This document shows, one piece after another, positions 1-8,046 of a stretch of DNA of 64,000 bases. The DNA lies in IMG/VR virus record IMGVR_UViG_3300032330_001692, positions 29,829-93,828 of that record, one strand, 5' to 3'. Within the stretch, counting starts at the first letter, position 1; each line of letters opens with the position of its first letter. The translations under genes and the position numbers were made by a program. The notes below the pieces were generated by a model. That model saw only the letters and a list, made by a program, of their open reading frames with translations. It was not told where the DNA came from and did no database searches. The DNA comes from a virus (lineage: Duplodnaviria; Caudoviricetes).

Positions 1-153
1 TGGAAGCGCGCATGGCTGCTGCCGATGCTGCCCTGGTGTACGCTAACCGCTTGAGCGATCCGTGTGCCACTGGTTGGGAAATCGGCGAAGCACTGGACAC
101 CCTGCAAGCGGCGTGTTATCATCTCGTTACCCTGCAACTTAACAAGGATTGAC

Positions 154-330
154 GTGTCGAAATTGAGTGATTTGAGCACCCAGATTCAGGATATGCTGGA
201 ATCTGGCATGGAACCCGAAACTGTAGCGCGCGTGTTGGAAGTGCCTGTGTCATGGGTGTTTGTGGAAATTGAGCAGGATCAAGAAGATTCGGCAAACTGG
301 TATAACCCGAATCCTCGGTTTGATTGGTAA
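154..330 (+). CDS. small HTH-like pre-early protein
   Basis: RBS aagga before GTG at 154; helical PETVARVLEVPVSWV. Confidence 0.55.
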   Translation: MSKLSDLSTQIQDMLESGMEPETVARVLEVPVSWVFVEIEQDQEDSANWYNPNPRFDW

Positions 331-350
331 CAGAAACTAAAGGAGATAAC

Positions 351-509
351 ATGCAGTTCTTTATGCTGGAATGGTGGGACATGAATCAAGGTAAGTATCA
401 TCAAGAGTATTACCAAACCTTTGAGGCTTTGTCTGCCAGGTTTATCATGTTGCGTGATAACGTGCCCGACAGCCGCCCGGAAGTTACCACCTGTCTGATG
501 GGCGACTAA
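351..509 (+). CDS. hypothetical protein
   Basis: aaggag RBS before ATG 351. Confidence 0.6.
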   Translation: MQFFMLEWWDMNQGKYHQEYYQTFEALSARFIMLRDNVPDSRPEVTTCLMGD

Positions 510-535
510 ATAATAAGGGGAAACCCTTATTATTT
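508..535. terminator. repeated hairpin AATAAGGG-N4-CCCTTATT (also ~2040, 4132, 5641, 6715)
   Basis: inverted repeat directly after the last gene of each pre-early unit. Confidence 0.7.
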
Positions 536-573
536 GCGCCGATATTATACCACCTAATATCGGGCCGCGTCAA
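536..573 (-). promoter_or_regulatory. leftward sigma70-like promoter, copy 1
   Basis: minus strand TTGACG-N18-TATAAT-ATCGGCGC. Confidence 0.65.
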
Positions 574-584
574 GAACTTTCTTC

Positions 585-600
585 TAGGTGTTTCCACCTA
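585..600. promoter_or_regulatory. palindrome TAGGTG-N4-CACCTA (also 961, 2225 imperfect, 4299, 5724)
   Basis: same dyad repeated in five intergenic regions. Confidence 0.6.
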
Positions 601-667
601 TGAAATAGTTGGTTGTGGCCTGGTGGCTGGTGTATACTGTGTTCACTCACTCAAACAAGGAAATCAA

Positions 668-880
668 ATGGACTACGCTCTCTACTCCACTGACGAACTG
701 GCAGGCATCTTTTCGGACTACTACAAAGACGTGCATGGCATCCGCCCTCGCTGGATTGACCACACTGATCGTGGGGTTTTGATGGCAGGGTTGACGGCGC
801 TGGACGATTACATGGCACACATGCGCAGTACGCCCGAGGGACGTGAAGAACTGCGCGAGCAGGGCTGGGTGCTGGGCTGA
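668..880 (+). CDS. hypothetical protein
   Basis: aagga RBS; SDYYKDVHGIRPR motif common in phage proteins. Confidence 0.7.
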   Translation: MDYALYSTDELAGIFSDYYKDVHGIRPRWIDHTDRGVLMAGLTALDDYMAHMRSTPEGREELREQGWVLG

Positions 881-910
881 CAAAAGACCCCACCAACTGT
901 GGGTCTTTTT

Positions 911-949
911 GGCGCCAAAATTATATCACTAATTTTGGGGCCGGGTCAA
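911..949 (-). promoter_or_regulatory. leftward sigma70-like promoter, copy 2
   Basis: TTGACC-N18-TATAAT-TTTGGCGCC. Confidence 0.65.
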
Positions 950-1010
950 GAACTTTTTTCTAGGTGTTTTCACCTATGTTAACCTGGCAGGCACTAAGCG
1001 AGAATACCGC

Positions 1011-1391
1011 ATGGATCAAAAAACACTTCTCGCACTGGCTCACAAAACCGTGGCTAAAACCTGGGGCAGCTTGGTCAGGGTTTACCCTGGGTTGACAGAA
1101 CCCTGCCCCATAGTGATGCTTAACTCACGCTTGAAAACTACCGCAGGCCGCAGTTTTTACACTCAGAGAAAAATTGATCTGTCAACACAATTGTTCACAG
1201 AACATCCGTTTCACTTTGTGCAGGACACCATCCCGCATGAAGTTTGCCATCAAGCGGCATGGGATTTATTTTCTGAACCCGGCCACGGCGAGCCGTGGCG
1301 GCGTGTTATGATCTCACTTGGCATCCAGCCTAATCGGTGCCATCAAATGACAAATACCCTATGGGAAGCTCAAAAAGCTAACCGCCGATAA
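1011..1391 (+). CDS. SprT-like zinc metalloprotein
   Basis: RLKTTAGR, HEVCH, HGEPWRRVM. Confidence 0.85.
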   Translation: MDQKTLLALAHKTVAKTWGSLVRVYPGLTEPCPIVMLNSRLKTTAGRSFYTQRKIDLSTQLFTEHPFHFVQDTIPHEVCHQAAWDLFSEPGHGEPWRRVMISLGIQPNRCHQMTNTLWEAQKANRR

Positions 1392-1392
1392 T

Positions 1393-1578
1393 ATGAAAAA
1401 TTTTCCCGGATTCTTGGCAGTGTGCGGCGCGTGGTTTTGTGCCCTGGGTTTTGTGCTGCCTGGCATCATGTGCTTTTTGGCCAGCTCGTTCTGGAGTATA
1501 TTCTGTGATGAGGATTGCAGCGTGTATTCTCTGGCGTTTCTGTGTGCTAACATGGTGGCATTTTTCAGGCTGACGTAA
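1393..1578 (+). CDS. small membrane protein
   Basis: two hydrophobic stretches; packed in operon. Confidence 0.55.
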   Translation: MKNFPGFLAVCGAWFCALGFVLPGIMCFLASSFWSIFCDEDCSVYSLAFLCANMVAFFRLT

Positions 1579-1579
1579 T

Positions 1580-1660
1580 ATGATCTGGAGCATGATTCTG
1601 GTATCTCTGCTGGCCAGCACGCCGCTGGTGCTTGTGTTCATTATGACTGAAAGTAGCTAA
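1580..1660 (+). CDS. 26-aa membrane peptide
   Basis: MIWSMILVSLLASTPLVLVFIMTESS, read by eye; 1 nt after previous stop. Confidence 0.45.
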   Translation: MIWSMILVSLLASTPLVLVFIMTESS

Positions 1661-1661
1661 T

Positions 1662-1805
1662 ATGCTTAACTTGCTTAAAATTCTGTGGGCTATCTGGTGT
1701 ATTATGTGGCTGCCCATTATGTGGTTGCTGGTGGGTGTAACCTACTTTGTGATATTGATTACCACAGGCAAAGCCGATGCCGACAGCTATATCGAGAACC
1801 TGTGA
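1662..1805 (+). CDS. 47-aa membrane peptide
   Basis: MLNLLKILWAIWCIMWLPIMWLLVGV...; stop overlaps next start (TGATG). Confidence 0.55.
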   Translation: MLNLLKILWAIWCIMWLPIMWLLVGVTYFVILITTGKADADSYIENL

Positions 1806-2038
1806 TGAAAAACTCCCGCGTGCGCTTGCGTTATGAAATTCTGGAAACTCCGGGCCTTAAACCCTGCACTGTATCTGCGGAAGAATTCCGCAGAAAGTTT
1901 CAAGGATCTACGGCAAAACTAAATCCAAAACAATATACCGGCACTGAAATGCTGGGCGTGGCCACCATGCACAAATCAAATGCAGTTCCGGTGTTTAACA
2001 CCGACGCGGCCCGAGATATTTCAAACATGCGCAGATAA
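1805..2038 (+). CDS. conserved phage hypothetical protein
   Basis: YTGT-x4-VATMHKSNAVPVF...DISNMRR motif. Confidence 0.7.
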   Translation: MKNSRVRLRYEILETPGLKPCTVSAEEFRRKFQGSTAKLNPKQYTGTEMLGVATMHKSNAVPVFNTDAARDISNMRR

Positions 2039-2059
2039 TAATAAGGGGAAACCCTTATT

Positions 2060-2098
2060 GGCGCCAAAATTATATCACTAATTTTGGGGCCGCGTCAA
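2060..2098 (-). promoter_or_regulatory. leftward sigma70-like promoter, copy 3
   Basis: TTGACG-N18-TATAAT-TTTGGCGCC. Confidence 0.65.
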
Positions 2099-2185
2099 GC
2101 GGGTGTGTGAAAATACCACACTGGTGCTTTCCCCTATACACCTGGTCTGCCAGGTGTGGTAGGCAATCAGTTTGCGCGGTTTTGG

Positions 2186-2224
2186 GGCGCCAAAATTATA
2201 CCCGGTTTCTAAAACACTTGTCAA
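2186..2224 (-). promoter_or_regulatory. leftward sigma70-like promoter, copy 4
   Basis: TTGACA-N18-TATAAT-TTTGGCGCC. Confidence 0.7.
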
Positions 2225-2349
2225 TAGGTGTTTTCCCCTACTAGTGGGCCTGGCCGACCTGTGCTAGCAAAAGACCCTGCCTGGTGTATGGTGTTGCTCG
2301 CCTGGCCGACCTGTGCTATTATCGGTGCTTCACACAAACAAGGTTCAGC

Positions 2350-2823
2350 ATGAAAACAGTTTCTCGGGTTTCAGTTTATGACATGGATGGCACTATCGTT
2401 TGCAGTTTGCATCGTTATCGTACCATTACTGGTCCAGATAATATTGAACGAATTGATTTGCCATACTGGCGCGAAAATGAGTATCGTGCAGGCGACGATT
2501 CTCTTTTGCCACTGGCCATGCAATATAAACAAGATTTGCAGGATGAAAACTGCTATGTGATTATTGCCACTGCGCGAGTATTGAATTCTCCCGACCGTAA
2601 ATTTATCCGGGAGATTTTGGGTCAACCCGATGCCATCGTCTCGCGTGCTGCAAATGATTCACGCTCGGGTGGTTTGCTCAAAGTATTGGGTTTGCGCAAG
2701 TATTATCAAGCATTCCAATCTGCGGATTGGTGCTTTTATGAAGATAATGCAACCTATCTCAAAACGGTTTGCGACTATTTCAATATCCGGGGCGTGTATG
2801 TGCCCAGCAAACAAGGCCACTAA
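2350..2823 (+). CDS. HAD-superfamily phosphatase
   Basis: VYDMDGT, TAR, FYEDN motifs. Confidence 0.8.
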   Translation: MKTVSRVSVYDMDGTIVCSLHRYRTITGPDNIERIDLPYWRENEYRAGDDSLLPLAMQYKQDLQDENCYVIIATARVLNSPDRKFIREILGQPDAIVSRAANDSRSGGLLKVLGLRKYYQAFQSADWCFYEDNATYLKTVCDYFNIRGVYVPSKQGH

Positions 2824-2840
2824 AATAGATTAAAAAGTTC

Positions 2841-2869
2841 TTGACAGCAGTATCTGATTCTGATATACT
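2841..2869 (+). promoter_or_regulatory. sigma70 promoter
   Basis: TTGACA-N17-TATACT. Confidence 0.75.
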
Positions 2870-2934
2870 CTTTTTGTTGGGTTAGTAAACCCAACCCGCG
2901 ATTATCCGGCGGCTCCGGTATAAAGGAAACTAAA

Positions 2935-3633
2935 ATGGCCAAAAAGCAATACTTTGCAATTCTCGACACCGAAACCACGATGGCAAATACCGTGGCTGAT
3001 TTGGGTATTATTATCGTTGACCGTCAAGGCAAGATTTATAATCAAATGGCAGTTTTGATTAACGGTCAATACGGCACGCATGAATTGTTCCATGACAAAC
3101 ATGCCAACGACGTTTGGGGTTATGGTGGACTGGAAAAGCGCAAACTGGCCTATACCAAAATGCTGGATTCAGGTTCGCGTATGCTGGCATCAGTTAATGC
3201 CATCAACCGTTGGATTCAGCAGGCCGTCGGCAAATACAATCCCGAATTGACTGCCTATAATCTGAGTTTCGACCTGGACAAATGTGTGAATACTGAGATT
3301 GATTTGAGTGGATTTAATAGCTCATTCTGTTTGTGGCAAGCTGCCGTGGGTAACGTCTGCAATACCAAACAATATAAACAGTTTGTGCTTGACAATCACG
3401 GTTTCAACGCTCCGACGGGCCACGGCAATATGTCCATGAAAACCACCGCAGAAATGGTTGCCGGGTTTATCTCGGGTGAGTTTAAGGCAGAACCGCATAC
3501 TGCACTGGAAGATGCCCGAGATTTTGAATTGCCCATTCTGGTGGAGATTCTGAAAAAGAAAAAGTGGCGTGAAAAGATTACCCCTTATGTGTGGCGTGAT
3601 TTTCAGGTGAAGAATCATTACTCGGTGAAATAA
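2935..3633 (+). CDS. DEDDh 3'-5' exonuclease
   Basis: LDTET, AYN-x2-FD, HTALEDA. Confidence 0.85.
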   Translation: MAKKQYFAILDTETTMANTVADLGIIIVDRQGKIYNQMAVLINGQYGTHELFHDKHANDVWGYGGLEKRKLAYTKMLDSGSRMLASVNAINRWIQQAVGKYNPELTAYNLSFDLDKCVNTEIDLSGFNSSFCLWQAAVGNVCNTKQYKQFVLDNHGFNAPTGHGNMSMKTTAEMVAGFISGEFKAEPHTALEDARDFELPILVEILKKKKWREKITPYVWRDFQVKNHYSVK

Positions 3634-3634
3634 T

Positions 3635-3967
3635 ATGCACGACCTTATCCGTCAAACGATAGGGTTTCTCCAAATCGAGAAACCCTATAAAATCGTGCTC
3701 AAACCCGCACTAAAAGGTAATGCAGCAGAGTATTATGAAATGCGCAGAAAGGGTAAACTGGTTTCGCATTTAATCCGGGTTTCAATCGACAATCTGCATA
3801 CTGATTCCCGGTGCTTGAATACTTTGATCGTGCATGAGTTTATCCACGCCTGGCAAGCCGAGAATAACATTGTGGAGATTCACGGCCGTGAATTCAGGAA
3901 AATGGCTAAATCTCTGGGCAACATTTTGAATCTGGACAATATCTATATTAAGGGCACAGATGTTTAA
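3635..3967 (+). CDS. SprT-like zinc metalloprotein
   Basis: HEFIH...HGREF. Confidence 0.75.
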   Translation: MHDLIRQTIGFLQIEKPYKIVLKPALKGNAAEYYEMRRKGKLVSHLIRVSIDNLHTDSRCLNTLIVHEFIHAWQAENNIVEIHGREFRKMAKSLGNILNLDNIYIKGTDV

Positions 3968-4127
3968 TATTCTAGAACTTAAACAAATCAAGGAAATTGT
4001 AGATGAAATCCTTGAGATTCATGACGCGCAAAATAATATTCATATACCAGAAAAGGGTTTTGAATATCTCAATACTCAACGTGCCATGCTCGAAGATCGA
4101 TTGCAAAAGATATTCGACGATTATTAA
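3960..4127 (+). CDS. hypothetical protein (55 aa)
   Basis: open frame filling gap before hairpin. Confidence 0.5.
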   Translation: MFNILELKQIKEIVDEILEIHDAQNNIHIPEKGFEYLNTQRAMLEDRLQKIFDDY

Positions 4128-4157
4128 CCAAACCGAATAAGGGTTTACCCTTATTCG

Positions 4158-4196
4158 GGCGCCAAAATTATATCACTAATTTTGGGGCCGCGTCCA
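4158..4196 (-). promoter_or_regulatory. leftward promoter, copy 5 (degenerate -35)
   Basis: TGGACG-N18-TATAAT-TTTGGCGCC. Confidence 0.55.
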
Positions 4197-4259
4197 GCGG
4201 CCTGGTGATTGTTTTTTGCTATGGCCGCCTGGCAGACCATAGGCTGTGCCTATGGGCCG

Positions 4260-4298
4260 GGCGCCAAAATTATACTATGCCTGCGAAAAAGCTGTCAA
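4260..4298 (-). promoter_or_regulatory. leftward sigma70-like promoter, copy 6
   Basis: TTGACA-N18-TATAAT-TTTGGCGCC. Confidence 0.7.
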
Positions 4299-4489
4299 TA
4301 GGTGAAAGCACCTAGTAGACCGCCTGGCGGAACTGTGCTAGCGAAAGACCCCACAAAAAGTAGGTGTTGCCTGGCGCGCTGGAATCGGTTATTATTCTTT
4401 TGTCGGTTGTTCGGACAGTTCTTTAAAAACCAGCGCGATTCAGGCCCTGCCGGGACGGCACTGCCAAAGACCCCTAAAAAAATAGGGGG

Positions 4490-4518
4490 TTGACACAGAA
4501 TCGAAAGTGACTGATAAT
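4490..4518 (+). promoter_or_regulatory. sigma70 promoter for A2-like gene
   Basis: TTGACA-N17-GATAAT. Confidence 0.7.
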
Positions 4519-4590
4519 AGATTCATCGGTTCAGGAAACGCCGAGCAATCGCAAAAGTTTCCAAATTGTTCCCTAAAAGGATACTGAAAA

Positions 4591-4947
4591 ATGGCTCAAG
4601 CTAAAACCGTGGTTGTGAACTACACTGCCGAACAAACTGCCCAGGTGGTTGCCGACTATCAAGCCGGTGTTACCGTGGAAACCATTGCGGAAAACATGGG
4701 CAAAACCGCCCGTTCGATTATCGCGAAACTGTCTCGCGAAGGTGTTTACAAGGCTAAGGTTTACAAAACCAAAACCGGCGAAACCGTGGAAAAGAAGGAT
4801 CAAACCGCCGATGCCATCGGTGCAGTTCTGAAAATGTCGGAGTCGGAGATTGAATCTCTGACCAAGGCGAACAAAACCGCCCTGCGCAAGATTTGGCAGG
4901 CGCTGGCTAATTCGCGGCCGATTACTCCGGAGGATGATTCCGAGTAA
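4591..4947 (+). CDS. T5 A2-like DNA-binding protein
   Basis: YTAEQT...IAENMGKTARSIIAKLSREGVY...SLTKANK; resembles T5 A2/D3/D5 HTH; pre-early position. Confidence 0.7.
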   Translation: MAQAKTVVVNYTAEQTAQVVADYQAGVTVETIAENMGKTARSIIAKLSREGVYKAKVYKTKTGETVEKKDQTADAIGAVLKMSESEIESLTKANKTALRKIWQALANSRPITPEDDSE

Positions 4948-5035
4948 TTCACAAACCCCGAAAGGGGTTTTAATAGTATCTTCACGGTACTATTAAAACC
5001 GTTTTCTCTCAACTGGCCTAGAAAGGGCATCCGTT

Positions 5036-5263
5036 ATGCGCAAAGATTCTGAAACTTTCATGAACTCGGGTTCGGGTTATCTGCGTGCCACCACCGCGGT
5101 GGAAGTCGTTGATATTTGGGGTCAGGTATCCTATCGAAAAGTGGTTATCGGCAAACTGCATGATGTTAGTTTGCACGATGCCCAGGATATTGTGGAAAAG
5201 GCTCGGCAAACTGCTGCCGACCGTGGGCAGAATATTCAGGCTGAATTCAAAATCTCTCTGTAA
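5036..5263 (+). CDS. hypothetical protein
   Basis: ORF with RBS. Confidence 0.55.
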   Translation: MRKDSETFMNSGSGYLRATTAVEVVDIWGQVSYRKVVIGKLHDVSLHDAQDIVEKARQTAADRGQNIQAEFKISL

Positions 5264-5278
5264 ACCGAAAGGATTAAA

Positions 5279-5623
5279 ATGTCGAATACTAAACTCTCTG
5301 TGGCTCAGAAACAAGCCTTGAAAACTCTGCGTCAACTTTATCCCGACGTTGAAATTTTCCATTTTCCCGATAATCGGGTTTGCGTGGGCATTCGGCGCAC
5401 CGGCGAGAAAATGGGGGAATTTTCCGTGGCAATTTGCGCAGATACCGAAACCAAGTATCGCAAAAAGGTCGGCGAACTGCTGGTGCGTGAGCGCATGCAA
5501 TATGGCGTGTGTTTGCCGGTGGAATTGGGCACTATTTACTCCGATGATGATGAAACCGAGTATATGGAAATGGTGGCTGATAGTATCGCCCAGGCAGTAA
5601 CCGGATTATCGCCCAGGCAGTAA
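5279..5623 (+). CDS. hypothetical protein
   Basis: RBS; VAIC...KKVG motif shared with 29136..29546. Confidence 0.65.
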   Translation: MSNTKLSVAQKQALKTLRQLYPDVEIFHFPDNRVCVGIRRTGEKMGEFSVAICADTETKYRKKVGELLVRERMQYGVCLPVELGTIYSDDDETEYMEMVADSIAQAVTGLSPRQ

Positions 5624-5665
5624 CCGGATAATATCCAAAACCGAATAAGGGTAAACCCTTATTCG

Positions 5666-5701
5666 GGCGCCATTTTATCATATAAAATGGGGCTGGGTCA
5701 A
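5666..5701 (-). promoter_or_regulatory. leftward promoter, copy 7
   Basis: TTGACC-N18-TAAAAT-GGCGCC. Confidence 0.6.
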
Positions 5702-5907
5702 GGGCATGTGTGAAAATACAACGTAGGTGTTTTCACCTAGTCTGACGCGCAAAATTTCGTGTAGAATAGGGTAGGCGCCAAAAATGCACCACACTGGTGC
5801 ACGCCTGGTGCACGCCTGGCAAAAGACCACACCGGCTCTAGGGTGTTGACGGCTGACGTGGACCCGGTGTACACTACGTCATCGGATCAAAAAACAAGGT
5901 AATAAAT

Positions 5908-5985
5908 ATGTGGATGCTTATCGGTTACATGGTGTTTATTGTGGCGGGGTTTGTGATTATGTTCACTGTAACTAGGGAATGGTAA
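5908..5985 (+). CDS. 25-aa membrane peptide
   Basis: aaggt RBS; MWMLIGYMVFIVAGFVIMFTVTREW. Confidence 0.5.
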   Translation: MWMLIGYMVFIVAGFVIMFTVTREW

Positions 5986-6164
5986 TGTTTCTGAAAACGT
6001 ATGAACGGGTAGTAAATACCCTGCTGGCAGGTAATACCGGCAACACTCAAATAGTTTGCCGGTTTCGTGGTGGCAAACTGCTGCGCGGTACTGCCAGCAA
6101 ACATAGAACCCACAGCGGGTGTATTTTTCGCAAATTCTTGAGGATGAAACATGCCAGGGTTTGA
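5985..6164 (+). CDS. small basic protein
   Basis: TAATG coupling. Confidence 0.45.
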   Translation: MFLKTYERVVNTLLAGNTGNTQIVCRFRGGKLLRGTASKHRTHSGCIFRKFLRMKHARV

Positions 6165-6360
6165 TCGTGATTACTTGGTGGCGGTTGGCGCTTACGGGCG
6201 TGATGCCACTGAGCAGGATTGGCAGGCCGGAAAAGATTTTCAGGTGAAAGGCGGCCCGTACTTTTCAATCCGTGATTGCGAAACCATCAAGCAGGATGGG
6301 GTTTCGCAAATCATTTTCTATAACCGCCAGGGTTATCTGGCTTTTGTAAAGGATCTATAA
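6151..6360 (+). CDS. hypothetical protein
   Basis: AYGRD...DWQAGKDF motif; RBS. Confidence 0.65.
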   Translation: MPGFDRDYLVAVGAYGRDATEQDWQAGKDFQVKGGPYFSIRDCETIKQDGVSQIIFYNRQGYLAFVKDL

Positions 6361-6578
6361 TGCGGATTACTCGCGACCAGTTGGTGGACTACACCGATAC
6401 TATACTCCATGATGCCAGCAGGCTGGGCTGGGATACTATTCGAGAATTGCAGGATCAGTATACGGTGAATCTGTGTGATGGTAATGACGAAACCTGGTTC
6501 GATTCAGACGAACTGCCCCAGGATCAGAACCTGACCATACTGTCAGAAGCCGAGTTTCTGGAAACCTACGTATTCTAA
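6360..6578 (+). CDS. hypothetical acidic protein
   Basis: coupled ORF. Confidence 0.6.
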   Translation: MRITRDQLVDYTDTILHDASRLGWDTIRELQDQYTVNLCDGNDETWFDSDELPQDQNLTILSEAEFLETYVF

Positions 6579-6588
6579 AGGAAAGATT

Positions 6589-6708
6589 ATGGAAACCGTT
6601 TTGATTTGGCTTGCAGGCGGAGTTATTACCTGGCTGGCCTTGGTGTTTTTGTTTCATGCTATTGTAATTGCGGGTGCATTTTATTTTATTTACAAAATTT
6701 GTAAATAA
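6589..6708 (+). CDS. 39-aa membrane peptide
   Basis: aagga RBS; almost entirely hydrophobic. Confidence 0.55.
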   Translation: METVLIWLAGGVITWLALVFLFHAIVIAGAFYFIYKICK

Positions 6709-6714
6709 CCAATA

Positions 6715-7300
6715 CCAATAAGGGTAAACCCTTATTGGCGCCATTTTACCACGTAAAATGGGAGCGTGTCAAGCACTTTCGGAAAAACCCTGCTGGCTGT
6801 AGGGGTTCTGCGCCGAAACCGGAATCATTCGCATTTGCATTCGTGTTCCGGTGGCTGAAAGCAAATGCGAATGATTCGCATTCAGCGCAGTAAACTGCGT
6901 AAAGTGTGTAAGGCCGGTAAAGCGCATAAAGTTGGTAAACCTCATAAACTGGGTAAACTGAGTAAACCACTCAAACCACTACCCCCCACCCCTATTGGCG
7001 CCAGTGCGAAATCAACAAGTGCAAAATCAACCAGTTTGCCGGCGCCAGTGCAAAAACAACACCAAATTTTCAGAGTCTGCCGGCGCCAAAATTATAAAGT
7101 GCAAAACCAATGCTTGTCAAGTGCAAATTTCAGAGCGTGACCCCAGCCGCGCCAGTGGGAAAACAACGGAAATTTCAAGGGTGGTGGGCGCCAAAATTAT
7201 AAAGTGGAAAACCAATGTGTGTCAAGTGCAAATTTTCACACGGAAACAGTTACCGGAACCCATTACCGCAAAAAGACCACATAAATTTTTAATTTGCTCA
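6715..7300. repeat. putative injection-stop-like region: leftward promoters 6737-6772, 7082-7120, 7187-7225; 17-bp inverted repeat; nine 9-bp repeats; GCGCCAGTG repeats
   Basis: dense direct and inverted repeats at the pre-early/early boundary, as in T5. Confidence 0.6.
6864..6882. promoter_or_regulatory. Fur-box-like palindrome
   Basis: AATGCGAAT-G-ATTCGCATT, 9-1-9 dyad. Confidence 0.5.
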
Positions 7301-7349
7301 AGTTTGCCTTTTGGGGTATAATGTTTTTATTCTAAACTCCGATACCGTT

Positions 7350-7652
7350 ATGGCTCAGCAACCTTATACTCCAGAACAAACCACCCAAGTGCTCCAACTA
7401 TACGCCGCAGGCGTAGACCAGGAGACTATTGCGCTTACTCTAGAGCGCAGCACTCGCAGCATTATTAGCAAACTGGTGCAGCTGGGCGTTTATCAAACTC
7501 CGGAACAGCGTCAGGCCAGACCCAAAAAAGCTGAGCTGATTCAGCAAATTGCAAGGCACCTGGACCTGGATGCAGCTCAGTTGAACTCTCTTGAAAAAGC
7601 CACACACGGCGCACTCACGCTCTTGCACAGCTCCATAACTCAACCCACCTAA
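7350..7652 (+). CDS. A2-like DNA-binding paralogue
   Basis: YTPEQT...RSIISKLVQLGVY...SLEKAT. Confidence 0.75.
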   Translation: MAQQPYTPEQTTQVLQLYAAGVDQETIALTLERSTRSIISKLVQLGVYQTPEQRQARPKKAELIQQIARHLDLDAAQLNSLEKATHGALTLLHSSITQPT

Positions 7653-7692
7653 TTTGGTTGCCGCGAAGGCGGCCAACTCTAGGGTCCAGAAA

Positions 7693-7732
7693 CAAAAAAG
7701 CCCGTAAACTTCACAGTTTACGGGCTTTTTTA
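7693..7732. terminator. bidirectional intrinsic terminator
   Basis: AAAAAAGCCCGTAAAC-loop-GTTTACGGGCTTTTTT between convergent genes. Confidence 0.85.
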
Positions 7733-7746
7733 CGTTTCAACACTTT

Positions 7747-8046
7747 TCACGGCTTTAAAGCCTTTTCCAAGAGCAAAAGCACGTTTTTGTTGGCTTTTTC
7801 AAGCGATTCCAGCAATTCCAAATTGCAATCCAGCAGTTTGGCAATCTTTTCGATCAAAACTTCCTTCTTTTCAGGCGGTTCACCGCGCTTGTTCAAGTAA
7901 GTTTTGCGCTGGTAAACACCCAAACTCGACAATTTTGCGATCACTGAGCGTTCAGGCACACCCAGAGTCCGGGCGAGTTCAGGCACAGGGACTCCGGCCA
8001 GGTGTTGGTTTAAAAGCTGTTGTGTGATTTCAGGAGTGTATTTCAT
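7747..8046 (-). CDS. A2-like DNA-binding paralogue
   Basis: YTPEIT...RSVIAKLSSLGVY...SLEKANK. Confidence 0.75.
   Translation of the reverse strand: MKYTPEITQQLLNQHLAGVPVPELARTLGVPERSVIAKLSSLGVYQRKTYLNKRGEPPEKKEVLIEKIAKLLDCNLELLESLEKANKNVLLLLEKALKP

Follow-up and report, generated by a model that had tools for sequence, protein, structure and literature searches.

Related phage systems

In T4-like phages, promoter-early stem-loops (PeSLs) combine a sigma70 promoter and an AT-rich upstream tract with a stem-loop that lies mostly between the promoter boxes or over the -10 (Arbiol et al., 2010, PMC2839356; Comeau et al., 2014, PMC4122927). The window analyzed here, that is the whole stretch of 64,000 nucleotides (nt) at bases 29829-93828 of a 93.8-kb IMG/VR virus contig (IMGVR_UViG_3300032330_001692), carries ten minus-strand promoter cassettes within an 8-kb block of small plus-strand genes. 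Judging from their sequences, we file these cassettes as PeSL-like promoter/stem-loop units, inverted and gene-less, in a T5-like phage, PeSL being the closest known system. The likeness comprises repeated intergenic cassettes in a block of small, variable and mostly unknown genes, a strong sigma70-like promoter with an AT-rich tract upstream of the -35, a stem-loop within or over the promoter, most often between the boxes or over the -10, and recombination between copies leading to insertions and deletions of gene modules, with ten copies in 6.7 kb in the present case. However, the promoters described here oppose the flanking genes, while PeSLs are co-oriented with them, serving as a terminator for the gene upstream and a promoter for the gene downstream; being inverted relative to this orientation, the cassettes drive no gene. 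They also differ in having a second hairpin just past the start site, stems that are AT-rich perfect palindromes instead of G-run/C-run ones, a fixed GGCGCC joint, and a T5-like genome as their residence instead of the hyperplastic regions of T4-like myoviruses. In the reading that we prefer, and to which we assign a probability of roughly 40%, the cassettes would be self-terminating antisense units bracketing pre-early-like operons. Below, their anatomy, conservation, orientation and turnover are reported as observed, while their firing, the position of the RNA ends and the regulatory pay-off are treated as what such sequences would predict.

Short antisense RNAs with a promoter and a terminator of their own are represented in temperate phages by oop of lambda and sar of P22. 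Their promoters, like those of the cassettes, are placed at the 3' side of a gene and point back, the transcript is short and hairpin-ended, and transcription is convergent. At the same time, oop and sar are single, conserved in sequence and overlap coding or leader regions by tens of bases, whereas the present phages have 6-11 copies per genome, the predicted RNA bodies of which vary and overlap little beyond the 3' hairpin of the mRNA. The untranslated repeat regions and the injection-stop signal in the terminal repeat of T5 (Davison, 2020, bioRxiv 10.1101/866236) are similar in their position at the end of a block holding the pre-early gene dmp, beside leftward early genes; yet the sequences are unrelated, no orphan consensus promoter family comparable to the cassettes occurs in the T5 repeat, and the latter, a direct terminal repeat, holds dmp, A1 and A2, while a homology search of the block found no A1 or A2 homologue. 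The promoter classes of T5 all use the host sigma70 polymerase and differ mainly in the discriminator, early promoters carrying ATATT (Klimuk et al., 2020, PMC7472727). The cassettes likewise form a discriminator-defined class (TTTGGCGCC), but T5 classes drive genes, and no orphan antisense class was reported in that work.

Anatomy, conservation and turnover of the cassettes

An earlier note on this DNA had listed ten minus-strand copies of TTGACN-N18-TA(T/A)AAT with a GGCGC tail, one of them bearing TGGACG, and both the pattern search and the promoter scan agree with it. Nine exact TTGAC-N18-TAWAAT sites were found, all on the minus strand, against 0.12 expected from shuffled sequences, none of which reached nine; the tenth copy was recovered by the promoter scan. 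On either strand of the whole contig, scanned with spacers of 15-20 bp, there are no further copies with the 18-bp spacer, and the remaining consensus promoters all have 17-bp spacers, including those at 2841, 4490 and 15513, to which the note had already ascribed this spacing as gene-driving promoters. The window copies fit 10-12 of the 12 sigma70 hexamer positions at 18-bp spacing, and four of them (2224, 4298, 7120 and 7225) have the perfect TTGACA/TATAAT pair, just as claimed. The -10 is followed by TTTGGCGCC in eight copies, by GGCGCC directly in two and by ATCGGCGC in one variant.

Two classes of copies can be distinguished. Those of class I (573, 949, 2098, 4196, 5701 and 6772) have an imperfect -35, a TGn extended -10, a 9-bp inverted repeat and a hairpin directly after GGCGCC. 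Those of class II (the four perfect copies) are devoid of TGn and of the inverted repeat, and each forms a tandem with a class I copy that lies 100-350 bp further downstream. Throughout the window, copies with TTGACG or TTGACC as the -35 have TGn and perfect-hexamer copies do not. The ten promoters make up six sets of one to three promoters each, one set per intergenic region, and each set is ended by a single hairpin.

A search for the motif in related phages revealed a large family. A scan of IMG/VR with a 15-base core gave at least 119 loci; among the matches listed, TTGACA is placed exactly 18 bp (sometimes 17 bp) upstream of the core in most loci, and 83 related loci (709 kb) hold 304 N18 and 59 N17 copies with the GGCGC tail, on one strand per locus, compared with one gene-strand promoter of the cassette type. 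These more than 360 (363) further copies are directed against the local genes and belong to uncultured phages of about 80-100 kb. The profile of 286 distinct copies has its information at an A/T-rich UP-like tract (upstream consensus aaaaa.ttt..a.aaa), at TTGACA, at TG in -15/-14 (81-88%) and at TATAAT. In the window itself, the sense promoter 2841 has the same upstream AAAAAGTTC-TTGAC module as the antisense cassettes. We take the contact-point profile, the strand uniformity and the module shared with 2841 as strong evidence that the cassettes are real host sigma70 promoters and are selected to bind the sigma70 holoenzyme. With TGn present where the -35 is weaker, the same observations favour the earlier view of promoter-grade sites without a gene.

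That no gene is driven was also a claim of the earlier note; downstream of any copy there is no credible minus-strand open reading frame (ORF), only a few short ones that 'start' within the promoter, e.g., at TTG of TTTTGG. These micro-ORFs were rejected, as their apparent starts lie upstream of the predicted transcript start. A plus-strand promoter made of the other palindrome arm was rejected as well, the arm having no -35 and no TGn and being degenerate in the window. Hairpin promoters for a virion polymerase, of the phage N4 type, were dropped, since no ORF for a giant polymerase is present in the window and the -35 and -10 are arranged as in sigma70 promoters.

The earlier note had offered two interpretations, a sink or roadblock for RNA polymerase on the first-injected DNA and a source of antisense or tiny RNAs, for use in host takeover or in the control of two-step injection. 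Its promoter identity stands, and its tiny-RNA option fits a hairpin 0-5 nt after the predicted start with a T-rich tail on the promoter strand. For a roadblock or a control of two-step injection, the sequence speaks neither in favour nor against. The sink, in which the cassettes would bind host polymerase and not make RNA, concentrating it on the incoming DNA or, later, on replicated DNA, drawing it from the host, we regard as unlikely. Under it, each repeat would offer 6-11 sites of maximal strength, with the hairpin or terminator only sparing the sense genes harm. An UP-like tract, consensus -35, TGn and consensus -10 form a combination of a kind known to be slow at promoter escape, and, in line with a sink, the copies keep their promoter part but vary freely in the transcribed hairpin, and the copy number is held at 6-11 while positions shift, as a dosage effect predicts. 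Nevertheless, ten to twenty sites face thousands of polymerases and cannot titrate the polymerase of the cell early, a quickly terminating unit recycles polymerase instead of holding it, and the phage needs the host enzyme for all gene classes, as T5 does (PMC7472727).

A 9-bp inverted repeat containing the -10 is folded by all six class I copies of the window and by none of the four perfect ones; in it, the upstream half of the spacer pairs with the -10 and the discriminator. The register of the repeat shifts between copies, and repeats were therefore scored per sequence: a score of at least 7 was reached by 216 of 266 copies versus 2 of 266 with the spacer shuffled, and the repeat is perfect in 189 of the 266. 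Where the discriminator (TTTTGG, TTGG, TCGG, TTTCGG) or the -10 (TATAAT/TAAAAT) varies, the spacer has compensating changes, three compensated variants occurring in this window alone; the mismatches gave no usable strand bias. Repeat-bearing copies comprise 230 with N18 and 3 with N17, and it is this tie of the inverted repeat to N18 that accounts for the fixed 18-bp spacer. TGn accompanies the repeat in 82% of the copies that bear one.

With respect to the genes around them, what lies ahead of the copies in the relatives is the end of an opposite-strand ORF (80 amino acids or more) in 111 of 185 cases and a same-strand ORF in 30 of 185. Comparison with the closest relatives, which are 78-93% identical, demonstrates rapid turnover. 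In L125, the site orthologous to that of cassette 5 has kept an 18-bp promoter with an intact -35, TTGACG, and a different, fully compensated inverted repeat, while the class II copy beside it has lost its -35; at another site of the same relative both promoters are absent, the sense-promoter DNA being about 100% identical. In L101, a single cassette takes the place of the two that flank the gene 668-880 in the window, and the joint falls inside a 73-nt cassette repeat. The number of copies per genome or repeat is 6-11 as positions change. Thus, the cassettes are exchangeable modules and recombination joints for the gain and loss of gene modules. Beyond what the earlier note had described, the family is clade-wide, co-oriented with the late operon, turns over in the manner of mobile cassettes and has a precedent in PeSL for the stem-loop over the -10.

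Such gain, loss and swapping between relatives, along with decayed remnants, would also be expected if the module were a selfish or near-neutral recombination element, which spreads and is homogenised among intergenic sites and the orientation of which has no adaptive meaning. We consider this very improbable, as the orientation is uniform in the more than 360 copies and in six genomes, the promoter contact points stay intact while the rest drifts, and a useless strong antisense promoter would be costly.

Cultured relatives gave only chance matches in 50,697 phage records, searched by megablast with 1-8000 and by a sensitive search with a single cassette, and the literature search returned nothing relevant on start-site maps for Demerecviridae. 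The 28-base cassette pattern was present in GTDB genomes in only four short contigs (L130-L133) of metagenome-assembled genomes from unrelated taxa; their labels (Saccharibacteria, Crocinitomicaceae, Flectobacillus and Alphaproteobacteria) are taken as mis-binning and give no host clue.

Post-promoter hairpins and the GGCGCC joint

According to the earlier note, six copies fire straight into a hairpin, and the same six have the -10 inside an inverted repeat; folding yielded the same six. These class I copies run at once into a stable hairpin (-8.6 to -17.5 kcal/mol), the onset of which is 0-5 nt after the predicted start, and the predicted RNAs are ~35-45 nt long with the hairpin flush with the 5' end. 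In the six sets of the window, a gap of 2-18 nt separates the set-ending hairpin from the preceding stop codon, which is that of the upstream plus-strand gene, and terminator scoring qualifies four of six hairpins on the minus strand and two of six on the plus strand. In the relatives, the distance from the first G of GGCGC to the hairpin onset is 5-9 nt for 160 of 201 copies versus 21 of 201 shuffled ones, the hairpin position following GGCGC and not the -10. Their hairpins are near-perfect AT-rich palindromes (stem GC 0.40) of 10-15 bp with 3-4-nt loops and fall into many unrelated sequence families, and one family is common to five of the six window copies; the loop orientation flips between copies. 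T-rich tails (at least 5 T) follow the hairpin on the promoter strand in 49 of 141 cases and on the sense strand in 8 of 141. Promoter-hairpin-promoter-hairpin tandems occur in the relatives L056, L035 and L037, and therefore the hairpin belongs to the antisense unit instead of serving only as the terminator of the gene. The loops have no GNRA bias, only a mild excess of A-rich loops being seen on the promoter strand, and the counts of G:T versus A:C pairs (4 vs 6 in the post-promoter hairpin H1, 7 vs 2 in the inverted repeat) are too small to tell on which strand the structures function. None of the cassettes matched Rfam 15, the sole hits being sub-threshold and located at the 7694-7731 terminator. 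Apart from the cassette hairpins, the window has at 6822-6877 a 21-nt inverted repeat containing AAATGCGAATGATTCGCATT, and the same palindrome family is the post-promoter hairpin in five cassettes of the relative L024.

If the cassettes are antisense units, transcription from a class I copy would begin 0-5 nt short of a near-perfect hairpin, which closely follows the stop codon of the upstream gene. The hairpin and, in most window copies, the T-rich tail on the promoter strand would then release a hairpin RNA of 35-45 nt, and the polymerase would leave the template without having penetrated deep into the gene. The effect would be local: every sense operon would have polymerases loaded at its 3' end and sent against it head-on, and convergent traffic, with pairing of the RNA to the 3' hairpin of the mRNA, may provide insulation and timing of the sense operons.

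Several facts weigh against this proposal. About one third of the copies of the relatives have no clear hairpin, and only about one third of the hairpins have a good T tail. The palindromes, AT-rich (GC 0.40), almost perfect and with no G:T bias (4 vs 6), fit symmetry at the DNA level as well as RNA. Individual copies are dispensable between close relatives; this makes a site-specific requirement at every operon end less plausible and speaks for a role that is collective or selfish. In the convergent promoters described in the literature, an elongating polymerase usually dislodges a promoter-bound one, and insulation by a 'sitting' polymerase may thus be weak. Finally, antisense units leave unexplained the fixed GGCGCC joint and its absence elsewhere in the genome.

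The hairpin RNA itself could be the product, acting in trans, for instance as an abundant U-tailed 5'-hairpin decoy for host RNA-binding proteins, nucleases or an immune sensor during the first seconds of infection. The units are self-contained promoter-terminator mini-genes, in tandem too, a hairpin flush with the predicted 5' end would give a very stable RNA, and several copies per genome share one hairpin family (here five of six). All the same, such a role seems to us quite improbable in view of the many unrelated hairpin families between and within phages, the loops that flip orientation, stems lacking an RNA-type wobble bias and the lack of an Rfam match.

A further reading follows from the position of the block relative to the late genes. 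On its left the block is adjoined by the minus-strand late operon (small and large terminase, portal, protease/head, adaptor, major tail protein and tape measure), and in the six genomes checked all cassettes are co-oriented with the small terminase gene terS and upstream of it, by 1.45 kb here and by 0.7-3.5 kb in five relatives. The hairpins might stop leftward transcripts only early, and a modified polymerase or an antiterminator would later let them run on; long transcripts would then shut down the pre-early-like genes, through collision and antisense RNA, and supply the terminase-portal-head-tail operon, in a layout like PR'-tR' of lambda with Q. Every cassette being directly upstream of terS in its own direction agrees with this, a strong promoter followed by an immediate terminator is the classic antitermination layout, and no strong minus-strand terminator was seen from the leftmost cassette to terS. 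On the other hand, terS has a good promoter of its own (TTGCCA-17-TGT-TATAAT, ~25 nt upstream of the start codon), ten promoters over 7 kb are unneeded to feed a single operon, family searches with the ten ORFs tested and Rfam revealed no Q-, N- or put-like factor or RNA, and any cassette antisense to an early block that diverges from terS is by that very fact co-oriented with terS. Late read-through is judged rather improbable.

The GGCGCC joint is distributed in a peculiar way. All 12 GGCGCC sites of the contig are within 911-7187, none being in the other 87 kb, where 9.4 are expected under a first-order and 2.0 under a fourth-order model; no other 6-bp palindrome is as strongly depleted outside the block, and the clustering of GGCGCC is the same in five relatives. 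This suggests that an enzyme, either host restriction or a phage function, acts on GGCGCC. Mainly on account of this confinement to the cassette block, we retain an explanation at the level of DNA, according to which two cruciform-prone palindromes flank a GGCGCC joint that is nicked, cut or bound by a phage or host enzyme and the promoter likeness is secondary; alternatively, the AT-rich palindrome over the -10 would be a supercoil-sensing switch, with a possible link to an injection stop, end processing or packaging. The hairpin following GGCGC, the prevalence of perfect inverted repeats and their compensating variants speak in its favour, as do the major nick consensus of T5, R/GCGCRGG (PMC3517423), and a repeat array with DnaA-box-like 9-mers that recalls the injection-stop region of T5. 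However, the likeness to the nick consensus is confined to the common GCGC, quasi-palindrome correction in replication could keep the arms perfect without selection, the class II copies have no palindrome yet retain the -35 and -10, and the exact sigma70 geometry, TGn and the UP-like tract are left unexplained. Overall, we would give such structural signals only a small chance.

The repeat array, which includes cassettes 9 and 10, may be a counterpart of the T5 injection-stop region, which has DnaA boxes (Davison, 2020). Six DnaA-box-like 9-mers (TTTYSCACT) are found within 200 bp (7011-7211, minus strand, one orientation) among 12 in the contig; two of them lie in the spacers of the promoters 7120 and 7225, and a '...CACTG-n-TATAAT' spacer is kept in ~13 of 148 aligned copies from the relatives.

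The features of both kinds could be combined in a timing device for a T5-like infection that proceeds without A1/A2. Self-terminating antisense promoters of maximal strength on the first-entering DNA, dependent on topology or on an enzyme via the cruciform-prone -10 palindrome and GGCGCC, would load host polymerase there and then switch the pre-early-like operons off and/or gate DNA entry or late read-through. We consider this scheme doubtful as a whole.

Genome setting and other features of the block

The contig carries T5-like replication genes, encoding NAD ligase, DnaB-type helicase, D10-like helicase, an SbcC-like (SbcCD-like) protein and ribonucleotide reductase, and its DNA polymerase is 49% identical to the polymerase of the Vibrio phage pVp-1 group. 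The order of the late operon, the terminal repeat position and leftward early genes is shared with T5; to the right of the cassette block, leftward genes are followed by rightward early ones. On the basis of this synteny and of the dmp homologue, a fair reading is that the block represents pre-early, first-entering DNA. Its plus-strand ORFs are packed tightly, and family matches were obtained for seven of ten tested. Two of the proteins in the block have a SprT-like metalloprotease domain (1011-1391 and 3635-3967), and two small helix-turn-helix (HTH) paralogues (4591-4947 and 7350-7652) match the PHROG family 'transcriptional regulator, D5-like', homologues of which are present in most relatives, often as two copies. 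The coordinates of the cassettes and accompanying features are collected in Table 1.

Table 1. Promoter cassettes, hairpins and associated features of the block (window coordinates; 'exact site' refers to the TTGAC-N18-TAWAAT match)
Feature	Position	Strand	Description
Cassette 1 promoter, class I	536..573	-	exact site 544-573; TTGACG, 18-bp spacer, TGG, TATAAT, ATCGGCGC
Cassette 1 inverted repeat over -10	within 536..573	-	distinct sequence; CGATATTA/TAATATCG
Cassette 1 hairpin H1	510..533	-	2 nt past stop of plus-strand gene ending 509; minus-strand T-rich tail; -12.9 kcal/mol, z -5.3
Cassette 2 promoter, class I	911..949	-	exact site 920-949; TTGACC-18-TGA-TATAAT-TTTGGCGCC; inverted repeat spans -10
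Cassette 2 hairpin H1	882..910	-	terminator-like on both strands
Cassette 3 promoter, class I	2060..2098	-	exact site 2069-2098; inverted repeat spans -10
Cassette 3 hairpin H1	2038..2061	-	immediately past stop codon 2036-2038
Cassette 4 promoter, class II	2186..2224	-	exact site 2195-2224; perfect TTGACA-18-TATAAT; no inverted repeat, no TGn; tandem, 126 bp upstream of cassette 3
Dyad, TAGGTG/CCCCTA type	2225-2240		touches cassette 4 -35
Homologue of T5 pre-early gene dmp	2350-2823	+	E 1e-9
Cassette 5 promoter, class I	4158..4196	-	TGGACG-18-TATAAT at 4196-4167; mutated -35 TGGACG
Cassette 5 hairpin H1	4133..4158	-	11 pairs; minus-strand tail TTTGGTT; -17.5 kcal/mol
Cassette 6 promoter, class II	4260..4298	-	exact site 4269-4298; perfect consensus; tandem, 102 bp upstream of cassette 5; dyad 4299-4314 touches -35
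Cassette 7 promoter, class I variant	5666..5701	-	exact site 5672-5701; TTGACC-18-TGA-TAAAAT, GGCGCC directly after; inverted repeat CCATTTTA/TAAAATGG
Cassette 7 hairpin H1	5641..5666	-	minus-strand tail TTTTGG; -17.5 kcal/mol
Decayed cassette remnant	5774..5792	-	GGCGCC then A-run; no -10, no -35
Cassette 8 promoter, class I variant	6737..6772	-	exact site 6743-6772; TTGACA-18-TGG-TAAAAT-GGCGCC; inverted repeat spans -10
Cassette 8 hairpin H1	6714..6739	-	-16.5 kcal/mol
Repeat array with cassettes 9 and 10	6990..7235	.	promoter-less GGCGCC units 6997, 7041; CGCGCC unit 7148; six TTTYSCACT boxes, one orientation
Cassette 9 promoter, class II	7082..7120	-	exact site 7091-7120; perfect consensus; spacer holds DnaA-box-like 9-mer TTTTGCACT; within 105-bp direct repeat
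Cassette 10 promoter, class II	7187..7225	-	exact site 7196-7225; perfect consensus; spacer holds TTTTCCACT; second copy of 105-bp repeat
Dyad H3, TAGGTG-N4-CACCTA type	586..601	.	upstream of antisense -35; more at 961-976, 2225-2240, 4299-4314, 5724-5739

The dyad H3 also occurs as a TAGGGG/CCCCTA variant, and most sense promoters have an AAAGACC box 15-20 nt ahead of their -35 (near 882, 2270, 4344, 4467, 5822 and 7272); both might serve as operators or activator sites, perhaps bound by the two D5-like HTH proteins. A sigma54 reading was considered for the CTGGC...TGCT repeats close to the sense promoters and set aside, since in most copies the spacing is too short by one base. At 7694-7731, where plus- and minus-strand genes converge, the block is closed by a textbook bidirectional terminator with a perfect 17-bp stem flanked by an A-run and a T-run, unlike the cassette hairpins, which are weaker. 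At the 3' end of the gene 5279-5623, 23 bp are perfectly duplicated in tandem (5584-5629), and this duplication creates or extends the C-terminus of the gene product. The divergent region between terS and the first plus-strand gene (contig 28.9-29.3 kb; L129:13921-14330) contains the terS promoter, several palindromes and two small minus-strand ORFs, and may harbour the genome ends or the packaging site.

Should the units fire as predicted, they would represent a widespread and so far undescribed use of the host polymerase against the direction of the earliest genes of a virulent phage, and the PeSL idea of regulatory cassettes that also shuffle genes would be extended, in reverse, from T4-like to T5-like phages. 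The cassettes offer compact natural promoter-terminator modules and markers for this phage clade in metagenomes, as well as a handle on two old questions of T5 biology, namely the shut-off of the pre-early genes and the role of the repeat-rich non-coding DNA in the first-entering segment.

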